Source: an uncultured Saccharofermentans sp.
GTDB taxonomy: Bacteria; Bacillota; Clostridia; Saccharofermentanales; UBA5734
Direction of reading: 5' to 3'
Length of the DNA stretch: 32,000 nucleotides
NCBI GenBank assembly: GCA_963677835.2
Contig: CAXXUX010000001.1
Location: 467,832 to 499,831, forward strand
This document shows positions 855 through 28,870 of the stretch, in pieces; position 1 is the first letter of the stretch, and the number at the start of each line of letters is the position of its first letter. Below the pieces are notes generated by a model that ran no database searches, was not told where the DNA came from, and was given only the letters and a program-made list of their open reading frames with translations. The translations under genes were made by a program, and so were the position numbers.

Positions 855-3800
855 GTGAAGACTAAAAAACGACTCAGTATGCTCCTGGTAATTGTAATGA
901 TCTTGTCCTTGCTTCCGACCACAGTTTTCGCCGCAACATCAGTCCACTTAAAATTGAATGATTACGCCGGCACGGTTTACAATAACCCTGCCAATGGCGG
1001 TTATTGCGGCTATTTGCTGATAGACTGGCGATTGATTCTTGAAGCAAATCCAACCGCTGTGTATGAAGATTTCACCAATCTCTGCCCGCTTGACCCTGTG
1101 GCCGGCAAGCCAAATCATGGCCTGGGCACTCTGTTTATCGAGCGGTTATGGGACAATGTTCTGAATGGTCCGGATATTCATTATCCGATGGAATACCGGA
1201 CTGACCTTTTCTTGCTGCCAATGACCACGGCCGGCAATAATGCCACATCTCAGGATGCAGGCACCGATATCACGTATGCGATTTTCGGTGCGATTCTTTG
1301 CCTAAACAATAGCGGCAACCTGTCTTATGGCTACTTCCCTATGCATCAATATGCGCCGGCTGGCAATCAGGGAATTGTGCCTGGCGTTGAAGCCAGCGGT
1401 ACCTTGAATGCCAGCATCGATGGCGTTCCTCTTGATGTTTTTGGGGCCGCCGAACTTCTCAATATTAAAAACAGCGTGCCGGTTCCGAATTCAGAAGTCA
1501 ATCCCGGGAACACGATCACTTATACCATTACAACTAAAAACATGGAAATACCGACCGGAATTCCGGCCATGGACAATTCGCTGATTGCTAAAAACATTGT
1601 GGCAACCGATACCATCCCAGCCGGCACCACCTACGTGCCTGGCTCAATTACGCTGGATGGCGCTCCGCTAAGTGACGCAATCGCTTTTAATGCGACAAGC
1701 AAAGTCATTACCTGGCCGCTCGGCGATATTAACCCGCAGCAGACAAAAACGATGACATTCCAAGTGATTGTCAACCAGCTTCCTGCCGGCCAGAACACCG
1801 GTTCGATCCGGAATTTCGCAATTGTCGACAAAAACGAGACCAATCCTGTCGACCATAGCGTCAAACGGTTAGGCTCGATTCAAGTCATCAAGCTGGATGC
1901 CGATTCTCCGGCCGCTCAGCTTGCAGGAGCTCATTTCAGCCTGACTTATCTGCCGGCCGGTGCGCCGCCTCAAGTCGTCAATAGCGACCTGGTCACCGAC
2001 GCCTCAGGTCAGATCGGATTAAGCAACCTGGCATATGGCAATTATGTTCTGGAAGAGACCATTGTCCCGGCTGGCTATATCCTGCCGGCCGGTGAAGCGG
2101 CCAAAGTCTATTTTACTTTGTCCAGCAGCGATCCCACGACCTACGTGATCCGCTTCCAAAATGCACGGCAGTCTTATCCAATCCGGGTTTATAAATATGA
2201 TGCGATTACCCATCTGCCATTGGCAGGTGTCATTTTTGAACTTTTTGACGGCAACGGTGCCGGAGCCACACGGCTGGCAGAATTGCCGGCAACCAACGCT
2301 TCCGGCTATGCCCAGACCCCAGGCATCTATAAACCTGGAACTTATTACGTCAAAGAAAAATTTGTTCCTGGCGGCTATATTCTTGATCCAAACTATCATC
2401 CCGTAACGGTCAATGTTGCTCAGACAAATGGCATGGCAACCATTGAAATCGGCAACCAGCAGCAGCATTACCCGATTGGCGTTTACAAGGTCGATGATGT
2501 TAACGGCGCTCCGCTTTTGGGCGTCATCTTCGAGCTCTTCGACGGCAATGGCGCCGGAGCCACACGTCTGGCTGAACTGCCGGCAACCAACGCTTCCGGC
2601 TATGCCCAGACCACTGGAACCTACGCGCCCGGAACCTACTACCTCAAAGAAAAGTCGACGATCAACGGCTATGTGCTGGACTCCGGCTACCATGCCGTTA
2701 CCGTCGGCATCGGGCAAGCGGGCGGCGTGGCAACCATCACGGTCCGAAATGCCCGCACGAAGTATCCTATTGGCGTTTACAAGGTCGATGACGTTAACGG
2801 TGCTCCGCTTTCGGGCGTCATCTTTGAGCTCTTCGACGGCAATGGCGCCGGAGCCACACGTCTGGCTGAACTGCCGGCGACCAACGCTTCCGGCTATGCC
2901 CAGACCACTGGAACCTACGCGCCCGGAACCTACTACCTCAAAGAAAAGTCGACGATCAACGGCTATGTGCTGGACTCCAGCTACCATGCCGTAACTGTCG
3001 GCATCGGGCAAGCGGGCGGCGTGGCAACCATCACGGTCCGAAATGCCCGCACGAAGTATCCCATTGGTGTTTACAAGGTCGATGACGTTAACGGCGCTCC
3101 GCTTTCGGGCGTGATCTTCGAGCTCTTCGACGGCAATGGCGCCGGAGCCACACGTCTGGCTGAACTGCCGGCAACCAACGCTTCCGGCTATGCCCAGACC
3201 ACTGGAACCTATGCGCCCGGAACCTACTACCTCAAAGAAAAGTCGACGATCAGCGGCTATGTGCTGGACTCCAGCTACCATGCTGTTACCGTCGGCATCG
3301 GGCAAGCGGGCGGCGTAGCAACCATCACGGTCCGAAATGCCCGCGTCGGATACCCGATCGAGATCTTGAAACTTGATGACGTTAGCGGCGCTCCACTTGC
3401 GGACGTGGTCTTCCGGGTCTATCAGGAAGTCCTCAGTATCAAAGTGCCGGTCACCGGTGATTTGACAACCAATGCCAGTGGCATCGCAACCAGCGGAGCG
3501 CTCGCTCCAGGCAATTATTTCGTCCACGAAATCAGCGTGCCCAATGGTTACGAGCTTGACCCCGACTACCATCCGGTTACTGTCAATATCGGGCAGGCGG
3601 GTGGCAAAGCGCAGATTACAGTTCGGGATAATCGCACGAAGTATCCCATTGGTGTTTACAAGGTCGATGACGTTAACGGCGCTCCGCTTTCGGGCGTCAT
3701 CTTCGAGCTCTTCGACGGCAATGGCGCCGGAGCCACACGTCTGGCTGAACTGCCGGCAACCAACGCTTCCGGCTATGCCCAGACCACTGGAACCTATGCG

Positions 3801-5267
3801 CCCGGAACCTACTACCTCAAAGAAAAGTCGACGATCAACGGCTATGTGCTGGACTCCGGCTACCATGCCGTTACCGTCGGCATCGGGCAAGCAGGCGGCG
3901 TAGCAACCATCACGGTCCGAAATGCCCGTACGCCCTATCGGATCCAGATTATCAAACTTGACCAGCGCGATGAAGAAACGCCATTGCAGGGTGCAGTCTT
4001 TGAGCTGCATGCGGCAGTCGCATCAAATTCGATCGCCTTAGCAGCCTTGCAGGTTGGCGGTTTACTTGAAACGTTGACAACCGATGTCAATGGTCAAGCC
4101 ATCACCCAAAACACTTACGCGCCTGGCCAATATTTCCTGGTAGAAACCAGTGCTCCGATCGGATTCCATCCGATTACCGAACCGATCCTGGTGACTCTGG
4201 ATATTGGTGCAGAACCCGAAGATGGCATCCTGACAATCCGCATCCTGGATAACTTTATTAATGAACCAAGCATCATCGTCGAAAAACGGGTCGCCAATAT
4301 CACCCGCAGCTTCCCGCCGGCCGAGCTGACTGAATTGTACGTCGGCGAGACCGCACAATATTCTGTTACGGTTACCAACAACGGCAATGCTCCATTGACC
4401 AACGTCACTCTGACTGACAATCAGGCCATTGCAGGTACCAGCGTAACGACTTCTGAAGGCGGCACCTTGATCTGGCAATCTGGTGCAGGCGGCATCGCTA
4501 CGCTGAATCTTGGCGATTTGGCAGTTGGTGAATCGCTCGATCTGATCTACAATTACATCACTACTGATGATGATCTGGCCATAGAGCCAATAACCAACAC
4601 CGTTGTCGCTACCGGGCAGCTGCAGCCAACTCCAGATTATCCGGAAGGCACCCAAATCAGTGATGATGACGCTGCTATCATCACCATTACGGACATTCCG
4701 CTTAATCAAGCCGGCATCACCCTCACCAAACTGGTTCAAAACTTGACCCAGGGCGGTGTTCCTGCAGAACTATCCGGTGGTTATCCGGGAGATGTCTTCC
4801 GCTATACAATAAAGATCACCAATACCGGCAGTCTTGATCTGACATCTGTCCAGATTTTTGATGATCGGGTTCGCGTCGGCGGAACAATCAAAAATGTCAC
4901 AAAAAACACGACCTTGACCTGGCTCAGTGATGAAGGAACCCCTTACCTGCCAATCGCAGATCTGGTTCCGGGCGAGTCCGTCACCTTCACCTATGAGTAC
5001 ACCAGCACGGCTGCCGATATCAGCAGCATTCGGGTCAACACAGCCAAAGTCCTGGCTACGGTTGCCATTACGCTGGATGATCCTAACCGGATAGTCATTG
5101 AAGCTGAAGATGCTGCCCAAGTTGCCGTAGATGAAATCCCAATAACCGGCGAATCCGGCGAAACCGGACTGATTGGCCTAACGCTGCTGCTTGGGGCCGC
5201 TGCACTTGTTCTGTTCCGCAAACGCCGGGAGGACAAAGATCTTGAAGATTTCAACGTTGATGACTAA
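855..5267 (+). CDS. Giant sortase-anchored surface adhesin (DUF11-type repeats plus nine Cna-B/SpaA-like modules)
   Basis: GTG start 10 nt after GGAGG (840-844). Signal peptide MKTKKRLSMLLVIVMILSLLPTTVFA/ATS. DUF11-like segments (NPGNTITYTITTKN, GETAQYSVTVTNNGNAPLTNVTLTD, GDVFRYTIKITNTGSLDLTSVQIFD). Repeated ~98-aa modules of the form YPIGVYKVDDVNGAPL..GVIFELFDGNG...GTYYLKE...GY.LD...H.VTV. C-terminal IPITGESG, then a hydrophobic helix and an RKRRED tail. Confidence 0.9.
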   Translation: MKTKKRLSMLLVIVMILSLLPTTVFAATSVHLKLNDYAGTVYNNPANGGYCGYLLIDWRLILEANPTAVYEDFTNLCPLDPVAGKPNHGLGTLFIERLWDNVLNGPDIHYPMEYRTDLFLLPMTTAGNNATSQDAGTDITYAIFGAILCLNNSGNLSYGYFPMHQYAPAGNQGIVPGVEASGTLNASIDGVPLDVFGAAELLNIKNSVPVPNSEVNPGNTITYTITTKNMEIPTGIPAMDNSLIAKNIVATDTIPAGTTYVPGSITLDGAPLSDAIAFNATSKVITWPLGDINPQQTKTMTFQVIVNQLPAGQNTGSIRNFAIVDKNETNPVDHSVKRLGSIQVIKLDADSPAAQLAGAHFSLTYLPAGAPPQVVNSDLVTDASGQIGLSNLAYGNYVLEETIVPAGYILPAGEAAKVYFTLSSSDPTTYVIRFQNARQSYPIRVYKYDAITHLPLAGVIFELFDGNGAGATRLAELPATNASGYAQTPGIYKPGTYYVKEKFVPGGYILDPNYHPVTVNVAQTNGMATIEIGNQQQHYPIGVYKVDDVNGAPLLGVIFELFDGNGAGATRLAELPATNASGYAQTTGTYAPGTYYLKEKSTINGYVLDSGYHAVTVGIGQAGGVATITVRNARTKYPIGVYKVDDVNGAPLSGVIFELFDGNGAGATRLAELPATNASGYAQTTGTYAPGTYYLKEKSTINGYVLDSSYHAVTVGIGQAGGVATITVRNARTKYPIGVYKVDDVNGAPLSGVIFELFDGNGAGATRLAELPATNASGYAQTTGTYAPGTYYLKEKSTISGYVLDSSYHAVTVGIGQAGGVATITVRNARVGYPIEILKLDDVSGAPLADVVFRVYQEVLSIKVPVTGDLTTNASGIATSGALAPGNYFVHEISVPNGYELDPDYHPVTVNIGQAGGKAQITVRDNRTKYPIGVYKVDDVNGAPLSGVIFELFDGNGAGATRLAELPATNASGYAQTTGTYAPGTYYLKEKSTINGYVLDSGYHAVTVGIGQAGGVATITVRNARTPYRIQIIKLDQRDEETPLQGAVFELHAAVASNSIALAALQVGGLLETLTTDVNGQAITQNTYAPGQYFLVETSAPIGFHPITEPILVTLDIGAEPEDGILTIRILDNFINEPSIIVEKRVANITRSFPPAELTELYVGETAQYSVTVTNNGNAPLTNVTLTDNQAIAGTSVTTSEGGTLIWQSGAGGIATLNLGDLAVGESLDLIYNYITTDDDLAIEPITNTVVATGQLQPTPDYPEGTQISDDDAAIITITDIPLNQAGITLTKLVQNLTQGGVPAELSGGYPGDVFRYTIKITNTGSLDLTSVQIFDDRVRVGGTIKNVTKNTTLTWLSDEGTPYLPIADLVPGESVTFTYEYTSTAADISSIRVNTAKVLATVAITLDDPNRIVIEAEDAAQVAVDEIPITGESGETGLIGLTLLLGAAALVLFRKRREDKDLEDFNVDD
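2175..3935 (+). repeat. Six in-frame tandem units of 291-294 bp, each encoding one Cna-B/SpaA-like module
   Basis: Unit starts (the Tyr codon of YPI) fall at 2175, 2469, 2763, 3057, 3351 and 3642, and the following divergent module starts at 3936. Units starting at 2469, 2763, 3057 and 3642 are near-identical at the DNA level; units at 2175 and 3351 are divergent. Confidence 0.9.
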
Positions 5268-5377: not shown

Positions 5378-5821
5378 ATGACTTTTCATATGCAAACTGC
5401 TGTCAGGACGGAAAGGCCGGGGCATCCAATGCCGACACCCTGGCAGCTAAGACAACGTTTGATGCGCTTTTTAACCATCGTCATCGTTGTCGTGGTTATC
5501 CTCTCTTTGGTAATTGTCTGGCAATACCAGAATCAAAAAGCAGCTGAGCGAATTGTTGGCAGCTGGTATTGTGTCGGAGAAGAAATTAAATATACTTTCG
5601 AAAGCGACGGCAAATTCAGCGCCGGCAATGGTCAGCAAATCCTGCTGACCGGCACCTGGAAAGCAGGATGGCAAAGCAACAATTTGCTTCTCATTTACGA
5701 ATTTGAAGGTCAGGAAATACGCGAAGAAACCAGCTATGCTTTAGCTGATGCAAATAGCCAGCTGATTTTTAAGGATATCCAGACCAAAAGCCTGGTCATG
5801 AATCGTCTTAAGGACTCATGA
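5378..5821 (+). CDS. Small membrane-anchored protein with a lipocalin-like extracytoplasmic domain
   Basis: AGGAGG lies 8 nt upstream of the ATG. One TM helix (FLTIVIVVVVILSLVIVW) is followed by a GSWY...TFESDGKF...GTW...N.L.L pattern typical of small lipocalin-like domains. Confidence 0.6.
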   Translation: MTFHMQTAVRTERPGHPMPTPWQLRQRLMRFLTIVIVVVVILSLVIVWQYQNQKAAERIVGSWYCVGEEIKYTFESDGKFSAGNGQQILLTGTWKAGWQSNNLLLIYEFEGQEIREETSYALADANSQLIFKDIQTKSLVMNRLKDS

Positions 5822-5870
5822 CTCCATATGGATTCACATGATCATCAGGTTTGCGGCTGCAGGCCTGATG

Positions 5871-7118
5871 TTATTTCAGCATATCGCTAGCCGGCGTCAA
5901 CTGTTCGCCGATAAAATCGCGGGCATACAATAAATTGACAGCGTCAAGCTGCAGACAGACGATATTGATCTTATCTCCGGACAATACTGCCTGGCGGACA
6001 GTCAATGCCGGCATCGCCGGTTTATTCAGATAAACATTGAAGCGGCTGCCGTCATGCAGGATCTGGAAAGTATTGAGATCATAGAAATAAATGCGGTCGT
6101 CGTCATCCTGGTTATCGGCTATGACAAAACGGTCAAAGTGGATGACCAGCGTTTTGTCGTCCCAGTTGGTAATCTCCCTGATCTTCATATGATAGGACTT
6201 ATAAAACAGCCGTTTACGATTGCTGTCGCCAATGTGCCGATCCAGCCGGTAGAGCATTTCCCATTGGCGGAAACGGTCGACGACCGGCATTTCCAGGTGA
6301 TCCCACAGACGGGAATCCGAAGACCGGCCTAGAAGGCTGGCCAGTTTTTGCTGCTGCAAGGGTCTGGGCGCGCCAAATCGATCCAGCAAAGCCAGGTTGA
6401 TCGGCTCCCATGCGGGCTGCAGCCGGTAGTCCTGCAAATAATGGCTGATAATCGCTATTTGTTCTTTTTCTTCGTTGATCTTGACGGCATGGATAAATAA
6501 TTCGGCATTGTCCTGGATCGACTGGTCAGGGCAAGCCTTGAAATATGAAGCAAGCAGGCTGGCGGCAAATGGGCTATCCGGCAAAATAGTCATTTTAACC
6601 AGATAGTCGCTGACCGGCTCACTCGGTTTAGCCAGCAGCCGGGCAGCCATGCGGTCCGGCAAGGTGTCGTCAATAATCGGCAAATCCGCAACCTGGGCAA
6701 TCGCCCGCAAATAGGGCTGGTCTGCGCTTTTTTCAGCCAATTCGCTTACTATAGCCGATAATACCCGGCTCATCCGGTCATTGGGGTAGTGATGCTGGTA
6801 AAAAGCCCAGCCGGTTTCCGCGAGAGAAGGCGTAATTCTAAGCGTCATAATATTCAGCAAACGCGCTACGGTTGACTCGCCTGATGCTGCCGACATGACT
6901 AGAAGCGCACCAAAAATGTCGTTCAACCGGCGGCGTGGCAGCAGCGTTGTAAAAGACTGCAATTCTTCTTCATTTTGGCAAGCCATGACATCCGCTAAAA
7001 ATTCATGTGCAAGCTGCTCATCAAAAGAACTGGACATTTCTTCCGGAAAAGCAACCTGTCTGCTGATCTGCTGGCGGATACTATGGATCTTGGCATCGGA
7101 TAATTGAAGCATGGTCAT
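5871..7118 (-). CDS. Hypothetical soluble protein (415 aa), downstream partner of the coiled-coil membrane protein
   Basis: Long ORF with a GGGGAG RBS and no TM segments. I recognise no family motif. It is on the same strand as, and 156 nt downstream of, 7275..9899. Confidence 0.6.
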   Translation of the reverse strand: MTMLQLSDAKIHSIRQQISRQVAFPEEMSSSFDEQLAHEFLADVMACQNEEELQSFTTLLPRRRLNDIFGALLVMSAASGESTVARLLNIMTLRITPSLAETGWAFYQHHYPNDRMSRVLSAIVSELAEKSADQPYLRAIAQVADLPIIDDTLPDRMAARLLAKPSEPVSDYLVKMTILPDSPFAASLLASYFKACPDQSIQDNAELFIHAVKINEEKEQIAIISHYLQDYRLQPAWEPINLALLDRFGAPRPLQQQKLASLLGRSSDSRLWDHLEMPVVDRFRQWEMLYRLDRHIGDSNRKRLFYKSYHMKIREITNWDDKTLVIHFDRFVIADNQDDDDRIYFYDLNTFQILHDGSRFNVYLNKPAMPALTVRQAVLSGDKINIVCLQLDAVNLLYARDFIGEQLTPASDMLK

Positions 7119-7274
7119 TCATCTCCCCAAAATGAGCTGTCAAGGTAACTCTAAAAACAGCCTAGATTTATCATACTACCGGAAGAAGGCCCATGCAACT
7201 ATGCCTTGCTAGAATGAGAGGCTAACCAGATGTCAAGCGATTGAAGCATTTATCGGTCAAGAGCCTTTTAAAGC

Positions 7275-9899
7275 TCATGCTACCGGCGTAGACTGGTTGT
7301 TGGAAATACCGGGCTGGGAGGCATGCCGAATGGCTTCCGGCAAGGCTTCCACGGCGTCGCCCAACTCGGTGGCAGAGCGCGCCAGGCGACGGACAACATC
7401 CGTCACTTCCGTATCAAACTGGCCGAGAATTCCGGAGAGCTCCGAGCGCATGCCCTGGTTGAAATCACCAACGGCACTGCGCAGATTTTCGTTCAGCTTA
7501 TCAATGTCCATATTGATTTCTTGCGCAAACAAGCTCATGCTCCGGGCTTCATCGCCCATAATTTCGGTCAGGCTGCGCAAACTGCCGCCTAAAGTGTCGT
7601 TTTGAGCAATAATCGACGTATCAATATTCTTGACCAGATCCTGGGTCAGGTTGGTAAAGCCCAGCATCAGTTCATCGATGCGGGTAGCCATCTCGTCGGA
7701 AAGAAGGCTGATCTGCTCTCTGACCGCATCCAGATGCTTCTGGTTGATTTCATAGGTTTCCAGCGACTGCGTCTGCATGAGACGAGTCTGTTCGGCCGAA
7801 CCGGCCATGACTGTGCTGAGCACGTCTGACAGGCGCATCAAATCATTGGACATCTGGCTGATCGCTTCACTCAAACCGGACTGGCTGCCGGCGTAAACAC
7901 TGCTCATGACATCCGACGCCTTGCTCATCACACCGGCTGAAGCTTTCAGCGAAACAAGGTCTTCCGTCATCGACTGCCTGGTTTCAACCAACTGGGCAAA
8001 GAGGTTGCGAATGCTCTCCTGCAAAGTAGTCGCCGATTCATTCTGAAGCTTCAGAACATCCTTGACATCCTTGGCATAGACTTGAGCTGCAATCAGTGAA
8101 TCGGACGAAGCCTGCAAGCGTTCGGAAATCGGATCCATATAGACGGCCAGTTTGCCGGATATCTCACCTGCAAAACTGTCGGCCAGCTGCTGCAGCGCCT
8201 CCTGCTGACGGCGGGTCATCTCCGTCAGGGTCTGGTCTTGCGAACGGCGGACATCCATCAGGCTCGATTGCTGAATTGTCATCAGTTTATTCAGAGCAGA
8301 GGCTTGCTGATCATTAACCTTCTGCAAAGCAGACATCTGCTGCTCATTGATCGACTGTAAGGTTTGAGATTGCCGTTGGTCAAGGTTCTGCATGATTTCC
8401 GTCTGGCTGCTGGTTAGGCTAAGGATTGATTCAGAATGCTGGGCCTTCATCTGTTCCAGGCTGTCCTGCTGGAATCGGGAAGCCTGCTGGTAGGCTTGCT
8501 GCTGCTGGTCGGCAATCGACGTAAAGGATTCTTTCTGCTGGTTCAGGAGGCTGTCATAAGCCTGGCTCTGCCGGTCAGCCAGCTTTTGCCAGATGTCGCT
8601 CTGGGTCTGGCGCAGCTGCTGCAGAATACTGTCATATTGATGGGCCAGCGTAGCCGAAGTCTGTTCGCCGGTTGTCGAGATCTGGAGTAAAGTCTGCTGC
8701 TGCTGGTCATTGAGATTGGTCAGCAATTTGGTCTGGCCTTCAGACAATTGGCTGATAATCTGTGTCAGTTTTTCCTGGAGAAGCGACCAGGCTTTCTGGC
8801 TGGAACTGTTGACATGAGTCAGCGTTTTTGTCTGCTCCTCGACAATTTTTTCCAGAGCAAATTTCTGAGCCTTGCCCAAATCATCGACCAGCCGTTCTTC
8901 GCTTCCGGTTATATTCTTTAACATGGCGGCCTGCTGATCAGTCAGTACTTCTGAAATCTCCTGATAACGCTTCAGCCAAAGTTCCGATTGCTTGTGCTGT
9001 CTGGTCTCCAGATCGGTATAAAGCTTCACTATGGCGTGATCCGACTTCTGGAGCTGTTTGTCCAGCTGCTGGGCCAGAAGCGCCAGCGCCTCCGTGCTCT
9101 TGATCACCGCCGGGGCCACTGTTGCGGACATGACGTATTTGACCGAATTAGATATGGCATCGGTCAGTTTATTCGAGACCAGATGCTGGACTTGCTCGGC
9201 CAGGATTTGTGTTGATTGGGACATCCTGGCGTCATAATCCTTCATTTGATTTAAAATGATGGCTGTTTCAGCCGCCTGACTATAAACCGGCAGCCGGCGT
9301 TCCAGCGCAATCATCAGCCGCTGCCAGGCATGGCGGACCTGCCGGAAATAGGCGTCGCTGCCCTGATATAAAACAAGCATGCACAAAGCGGATGCTACAA
9401 ACGGCATCAGCGCGATAAATCTCAGGAAAGCCGCATCCGCCAGCGAACCATTCAGAACAAATCCTGAAGACAACGCCATGGCTGAAACTGCGATGCCGCC
9501 CAAGATGACTGCCGATCCGGTTGACTTGTGAAAGGAAATCCGGGTCGGCTCGGGCAATGTTTCCTGAAGCGGCAGCCGGCTGGCAGGGTCCGGAACCCAT
9601 ATCGACCCAAACATGAGATTGCTGTCTTCCACCAAACGGTCAAATTGCAGCTTGAATTCCTTATTCATCTGCTCGTCGACCAGGGTTTGAACAATAGGCA
9701 GATTTTCAATCCGGCAGCTGGTCAGGGCATCAACCTCCTGTCCCAGCCGATTCAGTTTATTTTTGGCTAAAGTAGCCATGCCATGCATCGTGACAAAAAA
9801 GATCACCGCCAGGGCAATCAGTCCGGCCGTTGACAGCAAAACCAAGATCACCCAGATAATGCCAACTTGTTGAATCAATTCCTGCCACATCTCAATCAT
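7275..9899 (-). CDS. Three-TM membrane protein with a ~690-aa cytoplasmic coiled-coil tail (874 aa); function unknown
   Basis: GGGAGG RBS. TM1 is about aa 13-37, followed by a K/R-rich ~90-aa loop, then a TM2-TM3 hairpin at about aa 128-178, then a Gln-rich alpha-helical tail. Hydrophobic residues recur at exact 11-residue spacing from aa 327 to 569. Confidence 0.8.
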   Translation of the reverse strand: MIEMWQELIQQVGIIWVILVLLSTAGLIALAVIFFVTMHGMATLAKNKLNRLGQEVDALTSCRIENLPIVQTLVDEQMNKEFKLQFDRLVEDSNLMFGSIWVPDPASRLPLQETLPEPTRISFHKSTGSAVILGGIAVSAMALSSGFVLNGSLADAAFLRFIALMPFVASALCMLVLYQGSDAYFRQVRHAWQRLMIALERRLPVYSQAAETAIILNQMKDYDARMSQSTQILAEQVQHLVSNKLTDAISNSVKYVMSATVAPAVIKSTEALALLAQQLDKQLQKSDHAIVKLYTDLETRQHKQSELWLKRYQEISEVLTDQQAAMLKNITGSEERLVDDLGKAQKFALEKIVEEQTKTLTHVNSSSQKAWSLLQEKLTQIISQLSEGQTKLLTNLNDQQQQTLLQISTTGEQTSATLAHQYDSILQQLRQTQSDIWQKLADRQSQAYDSLLNQQKESFTSIADQQQQAYQQASRFQQDSLEQMKAQHSESILSLTSSQTEIMQNLDQRQSQTLQSINEQQMSALQKVNDQQASALNKLMTIQQSSLMDVRRSQDQTLTEMTRRQQEALQQLADSFAGEISGKLAVYMDPISERLQASSDSLIAAQVYAKDVKDVLKLQNESATTLQESIRNLFAQLVETRQSMTEDLVSLKASAGVMSKASDVMSSVYAGSQSGLSEAISQMSNDLMRLSDVLSTVMAGSAEQTRLMQTQSLETYEINQKHLDAVREQISLLSDEMATRIDELMLGFTNLTQDLVKNIDTSIIAQNDTLGGSLRSLTEIMGDEARSMSLFAQEINMDIDKLNENLRSAVGDFNQGMRSELSGILGQFDTEVTDVVRRLARSATELGDAVEALPEAIRHASQPGISNNQSTPVA

Positions 9900-10247
9900 G
9901 GCCTCCCGTTAAGATTAGCGCTTCTGCTGTGCAGATGATATGCTTTTGCTTTGTCTCGGCCAGTATCCGGTTTATCAGTTTATATCCCTCAAACTAACAA
10001 AATCGTGGTCAAATCTGGCAACAAACAAAAAACCGACATTCACGCCCAAAAGCCGATGTCCATTTTTTTTGCAGATTACAGTAAATCATAATTATTTTAT
10101 TCATTATACAACACCTTCATCCTCCTGGACAACCGCTTCAAATCCTGGAATTCAGGCAAAAATCAACTAGTAGCCAAAATGTAGCATGATTGTCACACCA
10201 ATGTGCTTTTGAAATAAAATTGTTTTGCATGATTTGTCATGAAATAG

Positions 10248-10275
10248 TTGAATTCCTCATAACACCTGTTATAAT
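10248..10275 (+). promoter_or_regulatory. Strong sigma-A promoter of the major pilin gene
   Basis: TTGAAT (10248-10253), 16-nt spacer, extended -10 TGtTATAAT (10267-10275). Confidence 0.6.
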
Positions 10276-10411
10276 GGTATTTGCAAGGCTATCCTGATAT
10301 CACTATCACTATCACCTCATGTAAATAGTCTTATCACCGAAGCTAGGCAGCCATCGGGGGGCAGCTCCGAACCAAACAAGCTGATTAGAGCAAAAAACGG
10401 AGGTAAGAAGC

Positions 10412-10792
10412 ATGAACAAAAACATGAAGAAAAAGAGCAAGAAAGGCTTTACCCTGATCGAACTGGTTGTTGTTATTGCCATTTTGGGCATCCTGGCCGC
10501 CATTTTGATCCCGGTCATTGGAGGATTTATCACCAGAGCCAGAATTTCAGCAGATGAAGCCAATGCCAGAAACCTTTACAACTGCGCATCAATGGCAATT
10601 GCAACTGGAGCAACCGCAGCAGACGTTGCTTGTTCAGGTTCAGCCACAGTGCCTGCAGTAATCCGGCCTTTGTTTGGCGCGACCATCCCAGACGGCCATT
10701 CCATTACCATTGTTGTAACAAGCGGCTTGGTTGCATCTGCAACTTATAGCGACGGCACCAACAGCGGCACCTACTCGAGACCGGTATCCTGA
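10412..10792 (+). CDS. pilA: Type IV major pilin (PilA-like)
   Basis: GGAGG 8 nt upstream. Class III signal MNKNMKKKSKKG/FTLIELVVVIAILGILAAI with Glu at +5. The gene has its own promoter and a strong terminator. Confidence 0.85.
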   Translation: MNKNMKKKSKKGFTLIELVVVIAILGILAAILIPVIGGFITRARISADEANARNLYNCASMAIATGATAADVACSGSATVPAVIRPLFGATIPDGHSITIVVTSGLVASATYSDGTNSGTYSRPVS

Positions 10793-10812
10793 TCATTTTT
10801 GTGATTGACCAG

Positions 10813-10847
10813 GGAGCAGCCTCTTGTGAGGTTGCTCCTTTTTCTTT
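10813..10847 (+). terminator. Intrinsic terminator directly after the major pilin gene
   Basis: 11-bp stem GGAGCAGCCUC / GAGGUUGCUCC with loop UUGU, followed by UUUUUCUUU. Confidence 0.8.
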
Positions 10848-10905
10848 CCCTGTTTTTTCCATTGGCATTGTGAAAACATCAGATTTTGGTTGAAGGAAAT
10901 GACAT

Positions 10906-11310
10906 ATGTTATCAAGAAAAGGTTTCACCTTATTGGAACTCATCATTGTGATAGCGATACTAACTATCCTGGCGACTCTCTTATTGCCAATGTCCATGAA
11001 TTTCATCAAAAGGGCCAACGAAGCGGCCGACCTGGCCAATGCCAATCTGATCTATACGGCTTCAGCCATTCAAGTGGCGACTACTGCCGGCGATATTGAT
11101 CAAACTTACCAGGCCAATGCCGATGGTTCCAGCCCGGCTTTCTACAAGGAGTTTATCGGGGATCCCTGGCCGCATCCCAAATTATCCGGTACAGCTTCTT
11201 TTGAAGTGGCAATCCAGAAAATCGGTATAACCCTCCCATCGATAAAAATATACCGCATCGATGGCAGCGAGCGGCAGCTTTATGTTCGCGACCAGAATTG
11301 CTTTCAGTAA
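10906..11310 (+). CDS. Second type IV pilin
   Basis: Prepilin signal MLSRKG/FTLLELIIVIAILTILATLL. GAAGGAAA RBS. Confidence 0.8.
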   Translation: MLSRKGFTLLELIIVIAILTILATLLLPMSMNFIKRANEAADLANANLIYTASAIQVATTAGDIDQTYQANADGSSPAFYKEFIGDPWPHPKLSGTASFEVAIQKIGITLPSIKIYRIDGSERQLYVRDQNCFQ

Positions 11311-11458
11311 TTCATTTATATTGAAGATTTGATAATCCCAGTTGATTAATCATTGGCGATTATGTAACATAGGTTTCGTTTTGATTATTTAAAATAATTT
11401 ATTTGTCATGTTCTGTCATTTTCTGAAATTATGGTGTATAATTAAGATATTAGTGAGA

Positions 11459-11493
11459 ATTTCTTCAAGTATGTTAAGCATACTTGAAGAAAT
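11459..11493 (+). promoter_or_regulatory. Perfect 15-bp stem, 5-nt loop hairpin in the leader of the minor-pilin genes
   Basis: AUUUCUUCAAGUAUG-UUAAG-CAUACUUGAAGAAAU with no U-tract after it. Preceded by a candidate promoter, cTGTCA (11413-11418) - 18 nt - TATAAT (11437-11442). Confidence 0.5.
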
Positions 11494-11547
11494 GAATCAA
11501 ATAAAGTTTGCAGAACTGCTTATATTGACCGGGAGGGGTGCAGGCGT

Positions 11548-12804
11548 ATGATGAATATATTTTCCACCAGACCAAGATGGCGTTCAAAGCACGGTAATGC
11601 CCTCGTTATGGTTATGGTGCTCTTTCTGGTCATGACCATATTTTCCGTTGCTTTGCTTTCAGTAGCCTATACCAACGGCAATCTGGTCATGGCTCAGGAA
11701 AAAACAGACAAGGCCTATTACATCGCCCGCTCGGTATCTGAAGCGACTGCCGACTGGATCAGTCACAATTACTACGACTATGCCAACTGGTATAAGGTGG
11801 TTCCCTTCGCTGACCGCCTGACTCAGGCCAATGCGCGGATCACCGAAGGCACATTGGATGGGCAGGATTATACGATGAAAGTCTGGCGGACCGACTCGAA
11901 GACCATCATGATTTCCGCCTCCACGACTTATCAAGGCTATACGGCCGACAGCACCGTGCAGGTTGATATGAATATCAGCGCCAATTCGATCTTTGACTAC
12001 GCCGTGTACTCGATTGACCTGTTTGAAGTCGATGGCACCATGAACATCATCCATGGCGGCGGCGCCGGAACCAATGAAAGCAAGCCGGCAAAGAATTTCA
12101 AGGATTTTACCTATGATCCCAGCACCTATCAGTCCGAATTTGATTTGAACAATTCGTACAATGCCATCGATATCAATGAATATGATGCATCCATGGTAAC
12201 CTTGCCGGCGACCGCGGCCGTCTTTGATGCGGCAAACACGATGACTATCGCCGCCAATACCCGTTTTGAGGATCTTAATCTGGTCAATAAGACACTGGTT
12301 ATCGAGAATTATGACACAGCCACTAGTGCCGCACGGGACGTGACCATCTATGTTTCCGGGAGAATTGACGGCACCGGCACCATGACCATTGGCGGCGCGA
12401 CCGGCACGACGATCCGGGTAACCGAACCTGATCCGGATATAGGCGGCAAGGTCTTTATCATTGTTGACACCATTTTCGAAGCCTCGACCAATAACAATAA
12501 ATTCACGATTGAGGGACTGCCCTATCGGGAACCGCTCCTTTACCTGTTTATCAACAGCCCTTCGGCAATTGATACGCGAGGCGGCACCTGGAATATCAGC
12601 GCTTATGTCTACATGCCGTTTTCGTCCTTTAAGAATTCCGGCGGTCTTTATCTGAATGGCGCCATCATTTCCGGCCATTATCAGGCAAACGGCAATAACG
12701 AAGTTTATTTTGTCCCGCCGAGGGAATTGCTCAATACCCCATTCTCGTCAATGATTCAGGATAGTCGGATCATCAGCATTGAAAAGACGACCTGGCGGCC
12801 ATAA
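11548..12804 (+). CDS. PilX-N-domain-like pilus protein (large pseudopilin or tip-associated protein)
   Basis: GGGAGGGG RBS 9 nt upstream. The N-terminus RSKHGNALVMVMVLFLVMTIFSVALLSVAYTN matches the PilX N-terminal pattern (G-x-ALV, hydrophobic helix, no Glu5). It sits within the pilin operon. Confidence 0.7.
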   Translation: MMNIFSTRPRWRSKHGNALVMVMVLFLVMTIFSVALLSVAYTNGNLVMAQEKTDKAYYIARSVSEATADWISHNYYDYANWYKVVPFADRLTQANARITEGTLDGQDYTMKVWRTDSKTIMISASTTYQGYTADSTVQVDMNISANSIFDYAVYSIDLFEVDGTMNIIHGGGAGTNESKPAKNFKDFTYDPSTYQSEFDLNNSYNAIDINEYDASMVTLPATAAVFDAANTMTIAANTRFEDLNLVNKTLVIENYDTATSAARDVTIYVSGRIDGTGTMTIGGATGTTIRVTEPDPDIGGKVFIIVDTIFEASTNNNKFTIEGLPYREPLLYLFINSPSAIDTRGGTWNISAYVYMPFSSFKNSGGLYLNGAIISGHYQANGNNEVYFVPPRELLNTPFSSMIQDSRIISIEKTTWRP

Positions 12805-12826
12805 GATAGAAGGAAGTGACTGTCCT

Positions 12827-13744
12827 ATGATCCAAAAGCATAAAAATCAACAAGGATTTACCTTGATCGAAGTTATTTTGGCCTTAGCGCTGTTGGGAAT
12901 TGTTTCCCTTTTAATGACGCCGGTTCTGGCCAGCGCTTATCGACAGGTCGCCTATAGCGGCGATCGCAGCCTGGTGGAAAAAGAGCTTACGGGCAATGCC
13001 GAAAATGTCTTTGCCGGCGGAACGCCAGATATAACAGCAGGAGAATTCCCAATAACAATTTCGACAACTGGTTCACCTGGAGATACTCCAATTTCAGTCA
13101 ATGCCGACAAAGTTCCCCTGGAATCCGACAGTAAATTGGGACAATCGTCAATCAATCTTTATGATCCAACCGAGATTCCATTTTTCAACCGGCCGATCGA
13201 TTTCAATAACGTCAGCATTTCAACGGTTGGCTGGAACTCGGCAAGCAAAGACGGCGTCTATGTTGATTTGGGAAGTCTGGCCGCAGAGTATGATGGCCGG
13301 ATCAAATATGCCTTGTATAACGCGACAACCAACTCCGTCATCATCAGCGAAACAATTTACACCGGAACTAATCCGCAAATTCCATTAGACAATCTGGAAA
13401 GCAGCATCAGTTATAATGTCGAGCTGGTCGAGATTGCCAATCCCGAAAACAAGCTGGTCATAACGATCCCGAGAGCGCCTCATCTTAAAGCGGTAGCCGG
13501 GAGCGGCAATAAAACCTACATCAAAATCGACCGGGATCATACCGGTATCTTTTCCGATCTTCTGGAAACCGATATGATCAGATATTCAACGACCATAGAT
13601 GGATCCTATACATCATTGATTTCCAGTTCAGTTTCTGTGGCCACCAGTGTGGCCAATGCCAGGACCTATTTTTTCAGGACACGTGAATCGTCCTATACGG
13701 CTAATACGCGTAATGCTGAATCAATCTATGTGCATCCAGAGTAA
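12827..13744 (+). CDS. Minor pilin / pseudopilin
   Basis: ATG at 12827 preceded by AGGAAG. Signal MIQKHKNQQG/FTLIEVILALALLGIV. The ORF-track start at 12779 overlaps the previous gene and is less likely. Confidence 0.75.
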   Translation: MIQKHKNQQGFTLIEVILALALLGIVSLLMTPVLASAYRQVAYSGDRSLVEKELTGNAENVFAGGTPDITAGEFPITISTTGSPGDTPISVNADKVPLESDSKLGQSSINLYDPTEIPFFNRPIDFNNVSISTVGWNSASKDGVYVDLGSLAAEYDGRIKYALYNATTNSVIISETIYTGTNPQIPLDNLESSISYNVELVEIANPENKLVITIPRAPHLKAVAGSGNKTYIKIDRDHTGIFSDLLETDMIRYSTTIDGSYTSLISSSVSVATSVANARTYFFRTRESSYTANTRNAESIYVHPE

Positions 13745-13770
13745 CCTCTGATTTTTGACAGGTGGCCAAA

Positions 13771-14352
13771 ATGTTATTAAAAGCTCTAAAACATCAGAAC
13801 AAGCGTGGTTTTACCTTGGTTGAAATAGCCGTCACTTTGCTCATTCTTGGGATTGTAACGGCAGCGATCATGACTGTATTCGGGTTTACCAACCAGTCGT
13901 TTATCAGCACCAGCGTCAGGTATGATACCCAGGTAGAGGCAAGAAGATTAATGGAGGGCTTGAGAAATGAACTGGGTTATGCCACTTCAGTCACGCTCCA
14001 TTATGCAAAGCCAACAACGCTTCCAGATGCCGCATCCCAAAAAGGATATTGCTATGGCTCCGGCAGCAACCTGGCTGTTCACCGTTTAGCCAATCAGCGT
14101 GTTAATTATTACTTTAACCAGGTGACTCAACCCATCAATGTCTCGATTACTTTTACTCCCAAGGCCCCTGACAATAGCACGAATCATAAAATCAATGTTA
14201 TCCAGGTCACCATCTCCTCTGATGTGTTTACCCTGGCATCAGATATCTTTGTCCAAAATCTCGGTTCCAGCGATTTTGCCTATGTCAATACCAGCGAATA
14301 TCCTAACAATGAAATCACCCATTGGGCCTATGTCGAATATACCCTGCCCTGA
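13771..14352 (+). CDS. Minor pilin / pseudopilin
   Basis: ATG at 13771 lies 6 nt after AGGTGG (the ORF also opens at GTG 13762). Signal MLLKALKHQNKRG/FTLVEIAVTLLILGIV. Confidence 0.75.
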   Translation: MLLKALKHQNKRGFTLVEIAVTLLILGIVTAAIMTVFGFTNQSFISTSVRYDTQVEARRLMEGLRNELGYATSVTLHYAKPTTLPDAASQKGYCYGSGSNLAVHRLANQRVNYYFNQVTQPINVSITFTPKAPDNSTNHKINVIQVTISSDVFTLASDIFVQNLGSSDFAYVNTSEYPNNEITHWAYVEYTLP

Positions 14353-14600: not shown

Positions 14601-15398
14601 TCAGGGCGTTGTTTTTGTTGTTTCCTGAGGCGAGGAGTACTGATAGGGATTGGCCGAACCGCCATCATATGGAGCCCTGCTCCACTGGGTCAAATCATCG
14701 TTTCTCGGCTCAAGCGATTTGATGCCGATAAAGAATAGTGAAATATCGACATTCAACGATTCTGCACTCGTAGAATTGATTTTCAGGTCTGAAACGATAA
14801 TTGAACGGTTTAATCCCTTGAGATCATCGAGCAATTGCAAAATTTGTGCATAAGATGTTTCAGCATTGATTTGGATCGTCAGTTGCTCGACCGCATCACT
14901 GTCCTGATTTTCTTCACTAGGCGTTGTACTCGGCTGGTTGTCAGCCGGTTCGGTCTCCTTGGGAGCGTTGGTTTCGGTATTCTTGTATTGTTCGGCAAGC
15001 TGACCCAGCTGATAGGTCAATTCATTGATATCCAGTTGATTGGGAACCAGGCTGGCGCCTTCAATCATGGATAAGGTATAGGCCGAAGGCAAAAAGCCAT
15101 TTCGCTGCATCAGATCGTGAGTGAACAATAAAAGTGAATCTGATTTCAGGCCGTCAATAAAGGGGGCCGACAGGGTTTCGATCTGTTTCAGGCTCTCATC
15201 ACGCTTCTTGGCAAAAACTTCAGCCATTTTTAAATTCAGGGTGATTTCATCAATCTGCGCATCTAATTCAGCCTGCTTTGTCGTCAATTCATTGAAATGG
15301 TCAAGGCCAGGCGCAAACACAAATTGATACTCGAGATAAAACAATCCGATGATAATCAAAAGTGTCAGTAAAATTATTTCTCGCTTTGAAAGCTTCAT
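14601..15398 (-). CDS. pilO: PilO-like pilus assembly protein
   Basis: N-terminal TM (IILLTLLIIIGLFYL) then a coiled coil. Its start overlaps the pilN stop by 4 nt. The position after pilM-pilN supports the call. Confidence 0.6.
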   Translation of the reverse strand: MKLSKREIILLTLLIIIGLFYLEYQFVFAPGLDHFNELTTKQAELDAQIDEITLNLKMAEVFAKKRDESLKQIETLSAPFIDGLKSDSLLLFTHDLMQRNGFLPSAYTLSMIEGASLVPNQLDINELTYQLGQLAEQYKNTETNAPKETEPADNQPSTTPSEENQDSDAVEQLTIQINAETSYAQILQLLDDLKGLNRSIIVSDLKINSTSAESLNVDISLFFIGIKSLEPRNDDLTQWSRAPYDGGSANPYQYSSPQETTKTTP

Positions 15399-15955
15399 GG
15401 TTGTTCACCTCCGACAATCTGCAAACTGATGGTAAAACTGGTTACACCGTTTGCCGCATCAGTATTCAGCTGACCCAGGATAACATTGGTGAACAGCGGA
15501 CTTCCCAGCAAAGCATGATACATGTCAAGCGGGTCGGTATTATTGCTGCTTTGGCACTGCAAATCCAGAGAATTGCCAATCAGGGAGCTGGCCGTAAATG
15601 CAGTGGTCATTGGCGTCAACTTCCGTAAATCATTTAATAGGGCGCTGTCAACAATATCCAGCTGATTGTATTTATCGGACGCTGCCTGCAGCAGTGTCAA
15701 ATATTTTGCCGTAAGCTCCGCTTCACTTTTGGTTTTGGCAGCGGCATCAATCTTGGCTTTGGTGTCTGAGGAATTGATATATTCGGTCTTTTCGTTAATA
15801 GACTGCTCCATTTTGTTGAAAAGCAGCAGGCCTCCGCCGATCAGCAAGGCATTAACCAAAACAAACAGTGCAAGAAAAACCAGGACAAAGATCCGAAAGC
15901 CATTGTTTTTCGCACGCCTCTTTTTGTATATTGAGAAAAAGTTGATATCGTACAT
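15395..15955 (-). CDS. pilN: PilN-like pilus assembly protein
   Basis: The N-terminal YDINFFS peptide resembles the INLLP PilM-binding motif, followed by a basic stretch and a single TM. It lies directly downstream of pilM. Confidence 0.7.
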   Translation of the reverse strand: MYDINFFSIYKKRRAKNNGFRIFVLVFLALFVLVNALLIGGGLLLFNKMEQSINEKTEYINSSDTKAKIDAAAKTKSEAELTAKYLTLLQAASDKYNQLDIVDSALLNDLRKLTPMTTAFTASSLIGNSLDLQCQSSNNTDPLDMYHALLGSPLFTNVILGQLNTDAANGVTSFTISLQIVGGEQP

Positions 15956-15974
15956 AAAAATGCTTTCCTCCTTC

Positions 15975-17003
15975 TTAACCCTGGTAGCGGATCATGGCGC
16001 CTATGGCATTGATATAGGGCGCGATCGGTTGGTCCTGCGGCATGGTTACTTTGCCCAGCTTGCGGATAACCTCGGTCGGAACGCCGAAAGCCTCGCCCAT
16101 TGTTTTTTCTAAGCCGTTGAAAACCGCCACACGGCCGTACAAATAAATCATTTCAACCCTGCCGTTTTGCAGGCGGCCGGAGAGGAATTGCTGAATCCGC
16201 TGAATGCCGTCGTTGACTGTCGTGACCAGCGGCCGAACCGCGTTACCCAGCGGTTCGTCGCTTCGCAGGCTATTTAATGACAGGTCCAGTTTCTCGATGT
16301 TGATCTGATCATCGGCCGTGGCATCATTATTGTGGGTGGCGACATAGCGTTCAATGTCAATGCCGCCAGCTGGAATAATCCTGGTATAGGTGATTTCACC
16401 ATTGGTGATGATGTAGGCGGTCGAGGTCACGGCGCCCATGTCCAGGTACATGACGCTCGCGCCTTCCCTTTGCGACCGGTCATTGACATCGGTTCCGGCC
16501 AGGGCTTTGCATATGGCATTGGGATGAATATCCAGGGCTATTGGGGTCAGTCCGCAATTGCGCAACAGCTTGTTGTAATCGTTGATGTAGTCCGTCTGCA
16601 TGGCCGAGGCCCGGATATGCAAAAGTTCCGGCTTGTCCGGGATTTTCTGCTTGGAGACGGTATATTCTACAGCGACATCCTTATTGGCGGACATGGAAGA
16701 CTGGACCTCAAAACTCACGACATCGTCCAGCACCTTGGGTTTGGCGTTGGGCACATCCAGCTCGCGGGAATAGATGTGGCTGCCGTTGATCGTCAGAATA
16801 CAGGAACGGTCATGAATCCGGTTTTTAGCCAGCATATTTTTCAGAGCCATTTCCAGGCCGCCGAATTCACGGATGATCCCGTCCTGCATCAGGCCGGATG
16901 GAATCGGTTCAATAAAGGCCTGTCTGATCGAGACCGAAGACCGGCTGGCCTGGCCTTGAACCAGATGAATGGCGCGTGTTCCAATATCGATGGCAATTGA
17001 CAT
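15975..17003 (-). CDS. pilM: PilM, actin-like ATPase-fold pilus assembly protein
   Basis: MSIAIDIGTRAIHLV phosphate-1-like N-terminus, 342 aa, located between pilC and pilN. Confidence 0.85.
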   Translation of the reverse strand: MSIAIDIGTRAIHLVQGQASRSSVSIRQAFIEPIPSGLMQDGIIREFGGLEMALKNMLAKNRIHDRSCILTINGSHIYSRELDVPNAKPKVLDDVVSFEVQSSMSANKDVAVEYTVSKQKIPDKPELLHIRASAMQTDYINDYNKLLRNCGLTPIALDIHPNAICKALAGTDVNDRSQREGASVMYLDMGAVTSTAYIITNGEITYTRIIPAGGIDIERYVATHNNDATADDQINIEKLDLSLNSLRSDEPLGNAVRPLVTTVNDGIQRIQQFLSGRLQNGRVEMIYLYGRVAVFNGLEKTMGEAFGVPTEVIRKLGKVTMPQDQPIAPYINAIGAMIRYQG

Positions 17004-17024
17004 AGTGTATCCTCCTTCAGTCGG

Positions 17025-18233: not shown

Positions 18234-18277
18234 GCAATCCCTCCTGTCTTAATGGATGATTTGCGCAGGATGCTTTT

Positions 18278-19417: not shown

Positions 19418-19435
19418 TTTCATCACTTCCCTTTA

Positions 19436-21112: not shown

Positions 21113-21256
21113 GATTTCTCTCTGCCTTTTCCTGCTCAACGGCATGACTAATAATGACAATTATTAATACAAGTCTTATTATACTAATATCAAATGATAA
21201 ATTGAAGGGTTCAGCACAAAATAAGTGCAAATGTCATGGACAAATAATATTTCTGT

Positions 21257-26409: not shown

Positions 26410-26814
26410 TTAGGAAAATAAAAATTCGGTAGAATAATCTTCCCGGGTATTAACATAAAAAGTAAACGAATAGGCGCCAAGATCATCAACCGTTAAGTCC
26501 TCAATATTCATCGCAACTAGCAGGTCGTCAGCATCATTAAAGCAGACGCCAGCGGGGATCTGAATTTTGGGGTCAATTTCTTTTGTATCGAGTTTGACCA
26601 CACCGTTGGCATTTTTGACTACAAGACGGAATGTTCTGAAGGTAAAGGACTCCGTCTTCTGAATGACAATCAGGGCAGCTAAGGAAAATAAAGCGGGCAC
26701 ACACGGCACTTGGCCGCGTGAGAGAATATGAAGGGCATTTTGTTTGATTTCATGATCACTGATTTGATCTGTGGTGATTTTTTCGCAGAATATTACATGA
26801 GCAATGTGTCCCAT
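26410..26814 (-). CDS. Small beta-rich hypothetical protein (134 aa), last gene of the SPFH/TPM operon
   Basis: GGAGG 8 nt upstream of the ATG. No TM or signal peptide. Alternating beta-strand-like pattern; possibly a DUF6941-like fold, recalled from memory and unverified. Confidence 0.55.
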   Translation of the reverse strand: MGHIAHVIFCEKITTDQISDHEIKQNALHILSRGQVPCVPALFSLAALIVIQKTESFTFRTFRLVVKNANGVVKLDTKEIDPKIQIPAGVCFNDADDLLVAMNIEDLTVDDLGAYSFTFYVNTREDYSTEFLFS

Positions 26815-26867
26815 TAGAACGCCTCCAAATATGTTTTAATGACATTATGATAACATGGCTGTCAATC

Positions 26868-28789: not shown

Positions 28790-28870
28790 TTTTCTCGCTT
28801 TATTCTATTGGCAAAACCCGGCCTTTTCGATGGGTCAGGTTTGGCTGGATGCAACAAATCCATAAAAAGC

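Follow-up and report, generated by a model that had tools for sequence, protein, structure and literature searches.

A 32,000-nucleotide stretch of contig CAXXUX010000001.1 from an uncultured Saccharofermentans sp., hereafter the window, carries two adjacent minus-strand genes, here called A and B, that are divergent from the pilin genes of a type IV pilus locus. That this pair is a relative of type I Zorya devoid of ZorB and ZorD is well supported. Gene A was shown computationally to encode a remote ZorA homologue, with a ZorA-type head containing three transmembrane (TM) helices and, between the first two (TM1 and TM2), a cytoplasmic domain, followed by a helical tail of ~650 residues and a ZorA-like tip. 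Gene B corresponds to the ZorC core only: its product has a ZorC-like fold and falls outside the definition of the EH signature. Because two adjacent genes independently match two parts of one four-gene system, the evidence for a relationship with Zorya is strong. The function of the pair, by contrast, can only be inferred, and the mechanism proposed below is argued by analogy. The two open reading frames (ORFs) and their parts are as follows.

7275..9899, minus strand: gene A, ZorA-like membrane protein with a long helical tail (ORF, homologues, fold and profile links to ZorA).
9789..9863, minus strand: TM1 of A, residues ~13-37, possibly a peripheral helix by analogy with ZorA (hydropathy; helix 2-57 of the AlphaFold 2 (AF2) model; aligned to residues 21-47 of E. 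coli ZorA (EcZorA)).
9519..9788, minus strand: predicted cytoplasmic head domain of A, residues 38-127, putative equivalent of the membrane-proximal cytoplasmic domain (MPCD, 48-127) of ZorA (AF2, hhalign and hidden Markov model (HMM) alignment to ZorA 66-135, conservation).
9360..9518, minus strand: TM2-TM3 hairpin of A, residues ~128-180 (hydropathy, ZorA alignment, conservation).
8700..9359, minus strand: post-TM3 linker and proximal tail of A, residues 181-400 (homologue alignments; 60-66% identity within the clade).
8100..8699, minus strand: variable Q-rich mid-tail of A, residues 401-600 (43-45% identity, indels, hydrophobic period 3.66).
7320..8099, minus strand: conserved distal tail and tip of A, residues 601-860 (71-77% identity; PADLOC and NCBIfam ZorA1 models; alignment to EcZorA 446-727).
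7119..7274, minus strand: A-B spacer, 156 bp (locus comparison; no terminator-like site on the minus strand).
5871..7118, minus strand: gene B, soluble acidic ZorC-core-like partner (ORF, 32 homologues, AF2, Foldseek, hhalign).
6069..6236, minus strand: segment of B, residues ~295-350, aligned with the EH-signature core of ZorC (hhalign; K302, F331, D335 and Y346 conserved across the broad family).

Both ORFs described in the initial annotation, of 874 and 415 amino acids (aa) and divergent from the pilin genes, were recovered at 7275-9899(-) and 5871-7118(-). These lengths are counted from the first ATG; database gene calls take the second one, giving 871 aa for A (start 9890) and 413 aa for B (start 7112), and a GGGAGG or GGGGAG ribosome-binding site lies 5' of the second-ATG start in both genes. 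Hydropathy placed TM1 at ~13-37 and the TM2-TM3 hairpin at ~128-180, as had been proposed. The loop after TM1 had been described as both K/R-rich and cytoplasmic. The first attribute was not borne out, since residues 38-127 hold 10 K/R against 12 D/E; the second stands, a cytoplasmic location being predicted from the charge after TM3 and from homology to the membrane-proximal cytoplasmic domain of ZorA. In the AF2 model this domain consists of two helices and a beta-bridge element, and its conserved motifs are CRIENL, EDS and WxPDP.

The fold of the head points to ZorA. When the AF2 model of the A head (predicted local distance difference test score (pLDDT) 74) was compared with the whole PDB using Foldseek, the top matches were the ZorA entries 8qyk, 8qyd and 8qyh (E 8e-4 to 1e-3, probability 1.0, template-modelling score TMt 0.59-0.63), and nearly all the others in the top 50 were ExbB, TolQ, PomA or MotA. 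EcZorA is built from TM1, a cytoplasmic domain (48-127), TM2 with Thr147, Pro163/Glu164, TM3 with Ser184, and a tail that begins at residue 223 (PMC11946911); the domain borders of A (38-127, 128-180, tail from ~208) match this layout almost residue for residue.

At the sequence level, the connection with ZorA runs through intermediates. An exhaustive profile search with the A head (residues 1-345) retrieved 117 representatives at E <=1e-3, as compared to 4 proteins for a word-indexed search with the A head alignment, and these representatives form one large cluster and five smaller ones. In head-only hhalign comparisons, the narrow clade of A aligned with the smaller clusters at P 1.4e-26, and the smaller clusters aligned with the heads of four ZorA sequences from annotated plasmid Zorya loci at P 7.5e-10 (probability 96.5%), while reversed or unrelated controls gave P 0.14-0.6. 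These smaller clusters do not represent canonical Zorya: in each of the four examined, the A-like gene is paired with a B-like one and ZorB is missing. Judged on these alignments, the chain from A through the intermediates to ZorA is solid. Moreover, the A family profile matched PDB chains of Shewanella ZorA (1e-20) and E. coli ZorA (1.2e-14), a match that takes in the head (residues 21-217, 27.9 bits). At the other end of the protein, the last ~80 residues of A align end-to-end and in register with the C-terminus of the ZorA1 models and of E. coli ZorA, residues 783-857 being the counterpart of the C-terminus of the PADLOC and NCBIfam ZorA1 models; PADLOC ZorA matches in the A family (E 7e-6 to 1e-2) are confined to the tail. 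The head of the ExbB/ZorA type and the ZorA-like tail foreseen in the initial annotation are thus found again by fold, where ZorA comes first and ExbB, TolQ and PomA follow, and by profile chains that reach ZorA.

The alignment pairs several residues of A with ZorA positions. G135xxxS139 aligns with ZorA G143xxxT147, the S139 position being Ser or Thr in 75% of the main cluster. The near-invariant P166 aligns with G183, and F167, at a position that is hydrophobic family-wide, aligns with S184. As for the Ca2+ site of ZorA (Glu86/Glu89), E81 falls at E86 and L84, a variable position, at E89. A would therefore keep half of the ion filter (Thr147/Ser184, facing ZorB Asp26) and half of the Ca2+ site. 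With the 5:2 motors at large (ExbB, TolQ, MotA/PomA; PF01618), A shares its membrane-domain fold and the G-x3-S/T motif in the pore-lining helix; it differs from them in that it has no PF01618 match and no ExbD/TolR/MotB-type gene nearby. Among the A subunits of 5:2 motors, a 650-residue tail is found in ZorA only.

The long helical tail announced in the initial annotation is present: from ~208 it spans 667 residues, rich in Q, L and S and containing only 5 prolines, and in the AF2 model residues 156-344 are helical apart from short breaks at 203-207 and 243-247, with low confidence at 243-265. Two near-invariant motifs of the linker and proximal tail, LPVY (P204) and VAP (P263), also occur in Shewanella ZorA. 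Identity within the clade is highest in the distal tail (71-77%), as against 50-54% for the membrane helices and 43-45% for the mid-tail. The hydrophobic periodicity of the tail peaks at 3.66 residues (11/3), not at 3.5, consistent with the right-handed tail of ZorA. The length of the tail varies by units of 11 residues, through QSLQTISxQQx inserts (window 8100-8699; homologues P0002 and P0008), and the related locus L003 carries about eight SLQEISxxQKx copies (L003:3317-6190). Such 11-residue steps fit the 11/3 periodicity and suggest that the length of the stalk is tunable.

B has no hydrophobic segment and a net charge of -12. Its AF2 model (pLDDT 88, predicted template-modelling score 0.82) has ZorC (8r68) as its best PDB fold match in Foldseek, with a probability of 0.99 over 359 aligned columns; the remaining matches are armadillo/HEAT-repeat noise with probabilities of at most 0.5. 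Using hhalign, a broad B alignment was matched to four ZorC sequences at P 2.1e-5 over 338 columns, B 35-406 being aligned to ZorC 62-469, that is, to the core seen by cryo-electron microscopy. Controls with reversed ZorC, ZorA, ZorB and ZorD gave P 0.45-0.8. The PADLOC ZorC model was touched by 3 of 23 members of the B family (best E 0.0045), and both B profiles returned nothing relevant from the PDB sequences. A test of the partner against EH_Signature and ZorC, which the initial annotation had called for, thus yields ZorC as the best fold match and the only profile match, with no Pfam match and half of the EH motif absent. That motif, as used here for EH_Signature/ZorC, is a network of Glu400 and His443 together with Asp332, Arg335, Trp339 and Trp458. 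B K302 falls at ZorC Arg335 and F305 at Trp339, while the near-invariant D335 of B (FVIAD) stands at ZorC Glu400 (FVEFS), an Asp replacing the signature Glu. Compared with ZorC and EH_Signature (PF15611), B therefore shares the core fold, the profile match over ZorC 62-469 and counterparts at K302, F305 and D335, and differs by its Asp-for-Glu change, its lack of His443 and Trp458, its lack of the C-terminal DNA-binding domain, and its acidity. On this comparison, DNA binding by B is doubtful.

The other two components of Zorya were not found. HMMs for ZorB and ZorD were built from four plasmid Zorya systems, whose own genes they recover at E <1e-119; run against six-frame ORFs (of at least 40 aa for ZorB), they matched nothing in the window and 24 related loci, the rest of the genome being outside the scope of this search. 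Neither is there a small ZorB-like TM ORF between or beside A and B, or a MotB/OmpA-like, helicase or nuclease gene in the window; this bears out the initial annotation, which had noted that MotB/ZorB-like and nuclease/helicase genes were missing from the window, and for ZorB and ZorD it holds in the related loci too. PilN and PilO of the window were considered as ZorB stand-ins and rejected, as neither has an acidic TM residue. The pair resembles type I Zorya (E. coli NCTC9026, Shewanella ANA-3; 8qyd, 8vvn, 8r68) in the order of its genes, ZorA-like then ZorC-like, and in combining a 3-TM head that has a cytoplasmic domain between TM1 and TM2 with a very long 11/3 tail, a similar tip and a ZorC-core partner. 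It differs in lacking ZorB (the axle, with Asp26 and the peptidoglycan anchor) and ZorD (Snf2/nuclease) in the loci searched, and in having a Gram-positive host and housekeeping or pilus genes, not defence islands, as flanks.

The pair is conserved as a unit. Close homologues of A (35-65% identity; 11 proteins) and of B (38-77%) occur on the same contigs in Clostridiales, Clostridia and Saccharofermentans metagenome-assembled genomes (MAGs). The A family as a whole comprises at least 117 clusters at 50% identity, without annotation in any library searched. Loci were opened in seven lineages, and in every locus that reaches past A, across six sequence clusters, the A-like gene is followed by a B-like one; the lack of co-occurrence that the initial annotation had named as a refutation was not observed. 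B-profile scores were 20-276 bits for full-length partners and 14-28 bits for the split fragments of locus L017. The A-B spacer of relatives measures at most 151 bp and disappears where the stop codon overlaps the start codon, and the two genes therefore probably form one operon. Synteny around the pair holds in relatives with as little as 35% identity, the flanks being housekeeping genes (fab, UbiB, TsaD, SmpB), and the pair appears to be vertically inherited. It was not found in viral contig scans, and a metagenome scan returned one locus with the pair family. A decayed Zorya remnant was considered and rejected, since both ORFs are intact and conserved across more than 100 clusters. Frameshifts were seen in some MAGs: A is split into 592 + 251 aa in L002:10001-12474 (the same locus as L013), B into 323 + 90 aa in L001:12650-13884, and L017:2500-3450 holds B fragments in two frames. 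These splits could reflect assembly errors or occasional pseudogenisation.

The surroundings of the pair in the window comprise a divergent control region, a terminator and the pilus genes.

5843..5870, no strand assigned: terminator-like hairpin with a 12-bp stem, directly 3' of the B stop, between convergent genes (computed).
9900..10411, no strand assigned: divergent control region, 512 bp, from A to the first pilin gene at 10412 (consensus scan; seven-locus alignment).
10103-10132, minus strand: A-side promoter-like site, extended -10 box TGTTGTATAAT (consensus scan).
~10214-10241, no strand assigned: conserved element of ~28 bp, starting CATGACAAATCATGCAAnACAA, between the two promoter sites (seven-locus alignment).
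10248-10275, plus strand: pilin-side promoter-like site, extended -10 box TGCTATAATG (consensus scan).
10412-14352, plus strand: type IV pilus locus, pilins and minor pilins (Pfam).
14601-21160, minus strand: type IV pilus locus, PilO, PilN, PilM, PilC, PilT and PilB (Pfam).

The divergent intergenic region is exactly 512 bp, as first described, and contains back-to-back promoter-like sites that are kept in relatives (seven loci aligned). The ~28-bp element between them is a candidate for a shared operator or UP element.

A link between the pair and the pilus, raised as a possibility in the initial annotation, is supported by the neighbourhood survey that it had advocated: the pair recurs in type IV pilus loci in four of the seven lineages with readable flanks, which are divergent in sequence and display three arrangements, and recognisable defence genes lie beside it in none of the loci examined. 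All narrow-clade loci (window, L001, L002/L013, L003, L009, L011, L012) have the pair transcribed away from the major pilins of a complete pilus locus, and they differ on its other side, which holds an LPXTG protein, IS605 or UbiB-BacA-TsaD-SmpB. In a second arrangement A-B is followed by pilD, pilB and pilT, and in another cluster by pilB and pilT. In yet another cluster, pilC, a sigma factor gene, a pilin gene, pilM, pilN, a pilO-like gene and minor pilin genes lie on one strand and A-B closes the operon. A sigma-70-family gene with regions 2 and 4 only was observed inside pair-bearing pilus loci of two lineages (L016:7914-8618, L020:964-1689); the window has no gene of this kind. Like the accessory proteins of pili (PilM/N/O, FimV-type organisers), A and B are encoded in or beside pilus operons, and A combines a membrane anchor with a large cytoplasmic part; unlike them, A and B have no sequence or fold relation to described pilus parts, and they lie off the pilus loci in some lineages.

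These data lead to the following proposal, which, taken as a whole, I hold with slightly better than even confidence. Head and tail of A would, as in ZorA, bring five copies together in a stalk anchored in the membrane, which would extend ~90 nm into the cytoplasm if scaled from the 507 residues that account for 70 nm in the E. coli protein. By way of its conserved tip, A may hold or recruit B, as the ZorA tip recruits ZorC and ZorD. Co-expressed with the pilins from the shared divergent control region, the pair would act together with the type IV pilus machinery of a Gram-positive cell, linking the cytoplasm to the pilus base or to the envelope in the role of sensor, scaffold or signal relay. 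In view of the missing ZorB axle and nuclease, and of a B protein that is acidic and has neither the signature His nor the C-terminal domain for DNA binding, the output is probably not DNA degradation. The same absences, together with vertical inheritance in housekeeping and pilus contexts, favour a role with the pilus machine, a stand-alone immune system being less likely.

A number of observations weigh against this proposal. On the side of A, the narrow-clade head profile alone did not reach ZorA, either in a search of PDB sequences or by hhalign, so that the homology rests on the intermediates, the fold and the tail tip. Pfam gave no match on A, MotA_ExbB (PF01618) included, at E up to 1, in keeping with the earlier remark that this signature was not evident; MotA_ExbB was matched in 1 of 67 relatives (3.4e-4). 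The NCBIfam ZorA models (NF041794 / NF033914-7) scored 18-19 bits on A, far below their cut-offs of 500-750. On the side of B, template-modelling scores against ZorC are low (0.35-0.37), and Pfam (EH_Signature, PF15611, included) and NCBIfam gave no match. ZorC His443 is a gap in the B alignment, Trp458 is aligned with V394, and B ends at the equivalent of ZorC ~469, without the C-terminal globular domain for DNA binding (487-560). Since all parts of Zorya are essential in E. coli (PMC11946911), there is no precedent for a ZorA relative that does without a B subunit. Finally, three of the seven lineages have the pair away from pilus genes (after fabD, near znu/fur, after aroD), and the pilus linkage could partly be due to shared ancestry.

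The pilus is the receptor for many phages, and the pair might instead be a minimal Zorya variant adapted to a single-membrane cell, in which A senses attack, perhaps at the pilus, and B relays the signal to an effector encoded elsewhere. This is the strongest competitor, improbable yet deserving to be kept in mind: the only known relatives of the two proteins are the defence proteins ZorA and ZorC, and, by co-regulation with the pilins, the cell would be armed whenever it displays the receptor. The tail tip, which Zorya needs for effector recruitment (PMC11946911), is conserved. Conversely, neither a nuclease or helicase nor ZorB was found in the 25 loci, B lacks His443 and the C-terminal domain for DNA binding, and the syntenic position among housekeeping genes, with no recognisable defence neighbours, is unlike that of mobile defence islands. 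Furthermore, E. coli Zorya requires each of its four genes, as well as ZorB Asp26 and peptidoglycan binding (PMC11946911).

A second alternative, which I regard as unlikely, is that the pair is an envelope or membrane housekeeping module unrelated to pili, involved for instance in lipid homeostasis, whose adjacency to pilus genes is a historical accident kept in some lineages. Its apparent vertical inheritance would suit such a role, as would its contexts outside pilus loci: besides the znu/fur and aroD neighbourhoods, in two lineages fabD immediately precedes the pair, on the strand that they share, at the border of a fatty-acid synthesis cluster (L006:7046-11628, L018:3047-7181, L019:5808-9942). 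However, pilus flanks in four divergent lineages and three arrangements are hard to obtain by chance or inertia, and one lineage has the pair closing the pilus operon itself. A fatty-acid-like density has reportedly been seen in the tail of E. coli ZorA.

A bolder version of the pilus role is very improbable. The pair would be the core of an ion-driven or mechanosensitive module of the Gram-positive type IV pilus, in which a TM helix supplied by the pilus replaces ZorB. A pilus-supplied axle is conceivable because A retains Ser/Thr where ZorA contacts the Asp of its B subunit: within the ZorA-like pentamer, this pore-lining Ser/Thr, which usually faces the carboxylate of a B subunit, would be kept, the axle would be, for example, the N-terminal helix of a pilin, which carries a conserved Glu5, or else an unlinked protein of the ExbD/MotB kind, and membrane potential or pilus load would be coupled to the cytoplasm through the tail. 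If so, the immune function of Zorya would have been derived from a housekeeping accessory of the pilus, or be a sister use of it.

Least credible of all is that A is a generic membrane-anchored coiled coil of the EzrA, chemoreceptor or apolipoprotein kind whose ZorA matches reflect helical composition: most HMM matches to ZorA models do fall in the tail, and the same profiles match myosin, apolipoprotein and chemoreceptor coiled coils, but a head-only model, which has little coiled coil, retrieves only 5:2 motor subunits with ZorA first and is separated from its hhalign controls as reported above, the tail tip matches in register and the partner independently matches ZorC. A itself (Pfam) and its relatives gave no match to the EzrA or MCPsignal families, so that neither of the families that the initial annotation had named as possible refutations, nor any other unrelated one, claims A; searched against the PDB, the full-length A profile returned just weak sigma-factor and apolipoprotein noise. 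EzrA, chemoreceptor and apolipoprotein identities were accordingly rejected, given that Zorya in particular is indicated by the head, by the tail tip and by the partner alike.

To return to the pair as a Zorya relative working with the pilus, its conservation is unexpected. ZorA and ZorB are common to all described Zorya systems (PMC11890865); since every part is moreover essential in E. coli, a conserved pair without ZorB and without nuclease would not have been anticipated. In the literature, no description was found of a ZorA-like protein without ZorB, or of one linked to pili. The pair suggests that the ZorA stalk and the ZorC core constitute an older functional unit, able to work without a peptidoglycan-anchored axle, and its placement in pilus clusters of several clostridial lineages points to an undescribed use of the ZorA/ZorC machinery. 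It offers a handle on the roles of the ZorA tail and of ZorC, on the origin of Zorya, and on whether clostridial type IV pili have an undescribed accessory.

Other genes were observed around the pair. In relatives, not in the window, a gene for a small phasin-like protein of 90-111 aa and, after it, one for a UbiB/ABC1 kinase lie one or two genes downstream (L002:14003-16083, L003:11470-13485, L004:3867-5882, L005:3992-5970), and in L003 an unannotated 925-aa protein comes directly after B. In the window, positions 855-5267 (plus strand) encode a 1470-aa LPXTG-anchored surface protein with eight SpaA-type domains, several of them near-identical in protein sequence; homologues of it also flank the pair in L009. 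A 663-aa ORF on the opposite strand (2019-4010) lies within the near-identical repeats of this gene, is itself repetitive and looks like a chance ORF. Convergent with B, positions 5378-5821 (plus strand) encode a 147-aa single-TM protein that is not ZorB-like; it has a weak match to TIGR03066 (9.9e-5, below the cut-off) and gave no tblastn match above the length filter in the related loci. Further away, 26410-30112 (minus strand) encodes a DUF6941 protein, a TPM-domain protein, a double-zinc-ribbon protein and an SPFH/Band7 protein with a zinc ribbon, which looks like a membrane-associated module unrelated to the pair.

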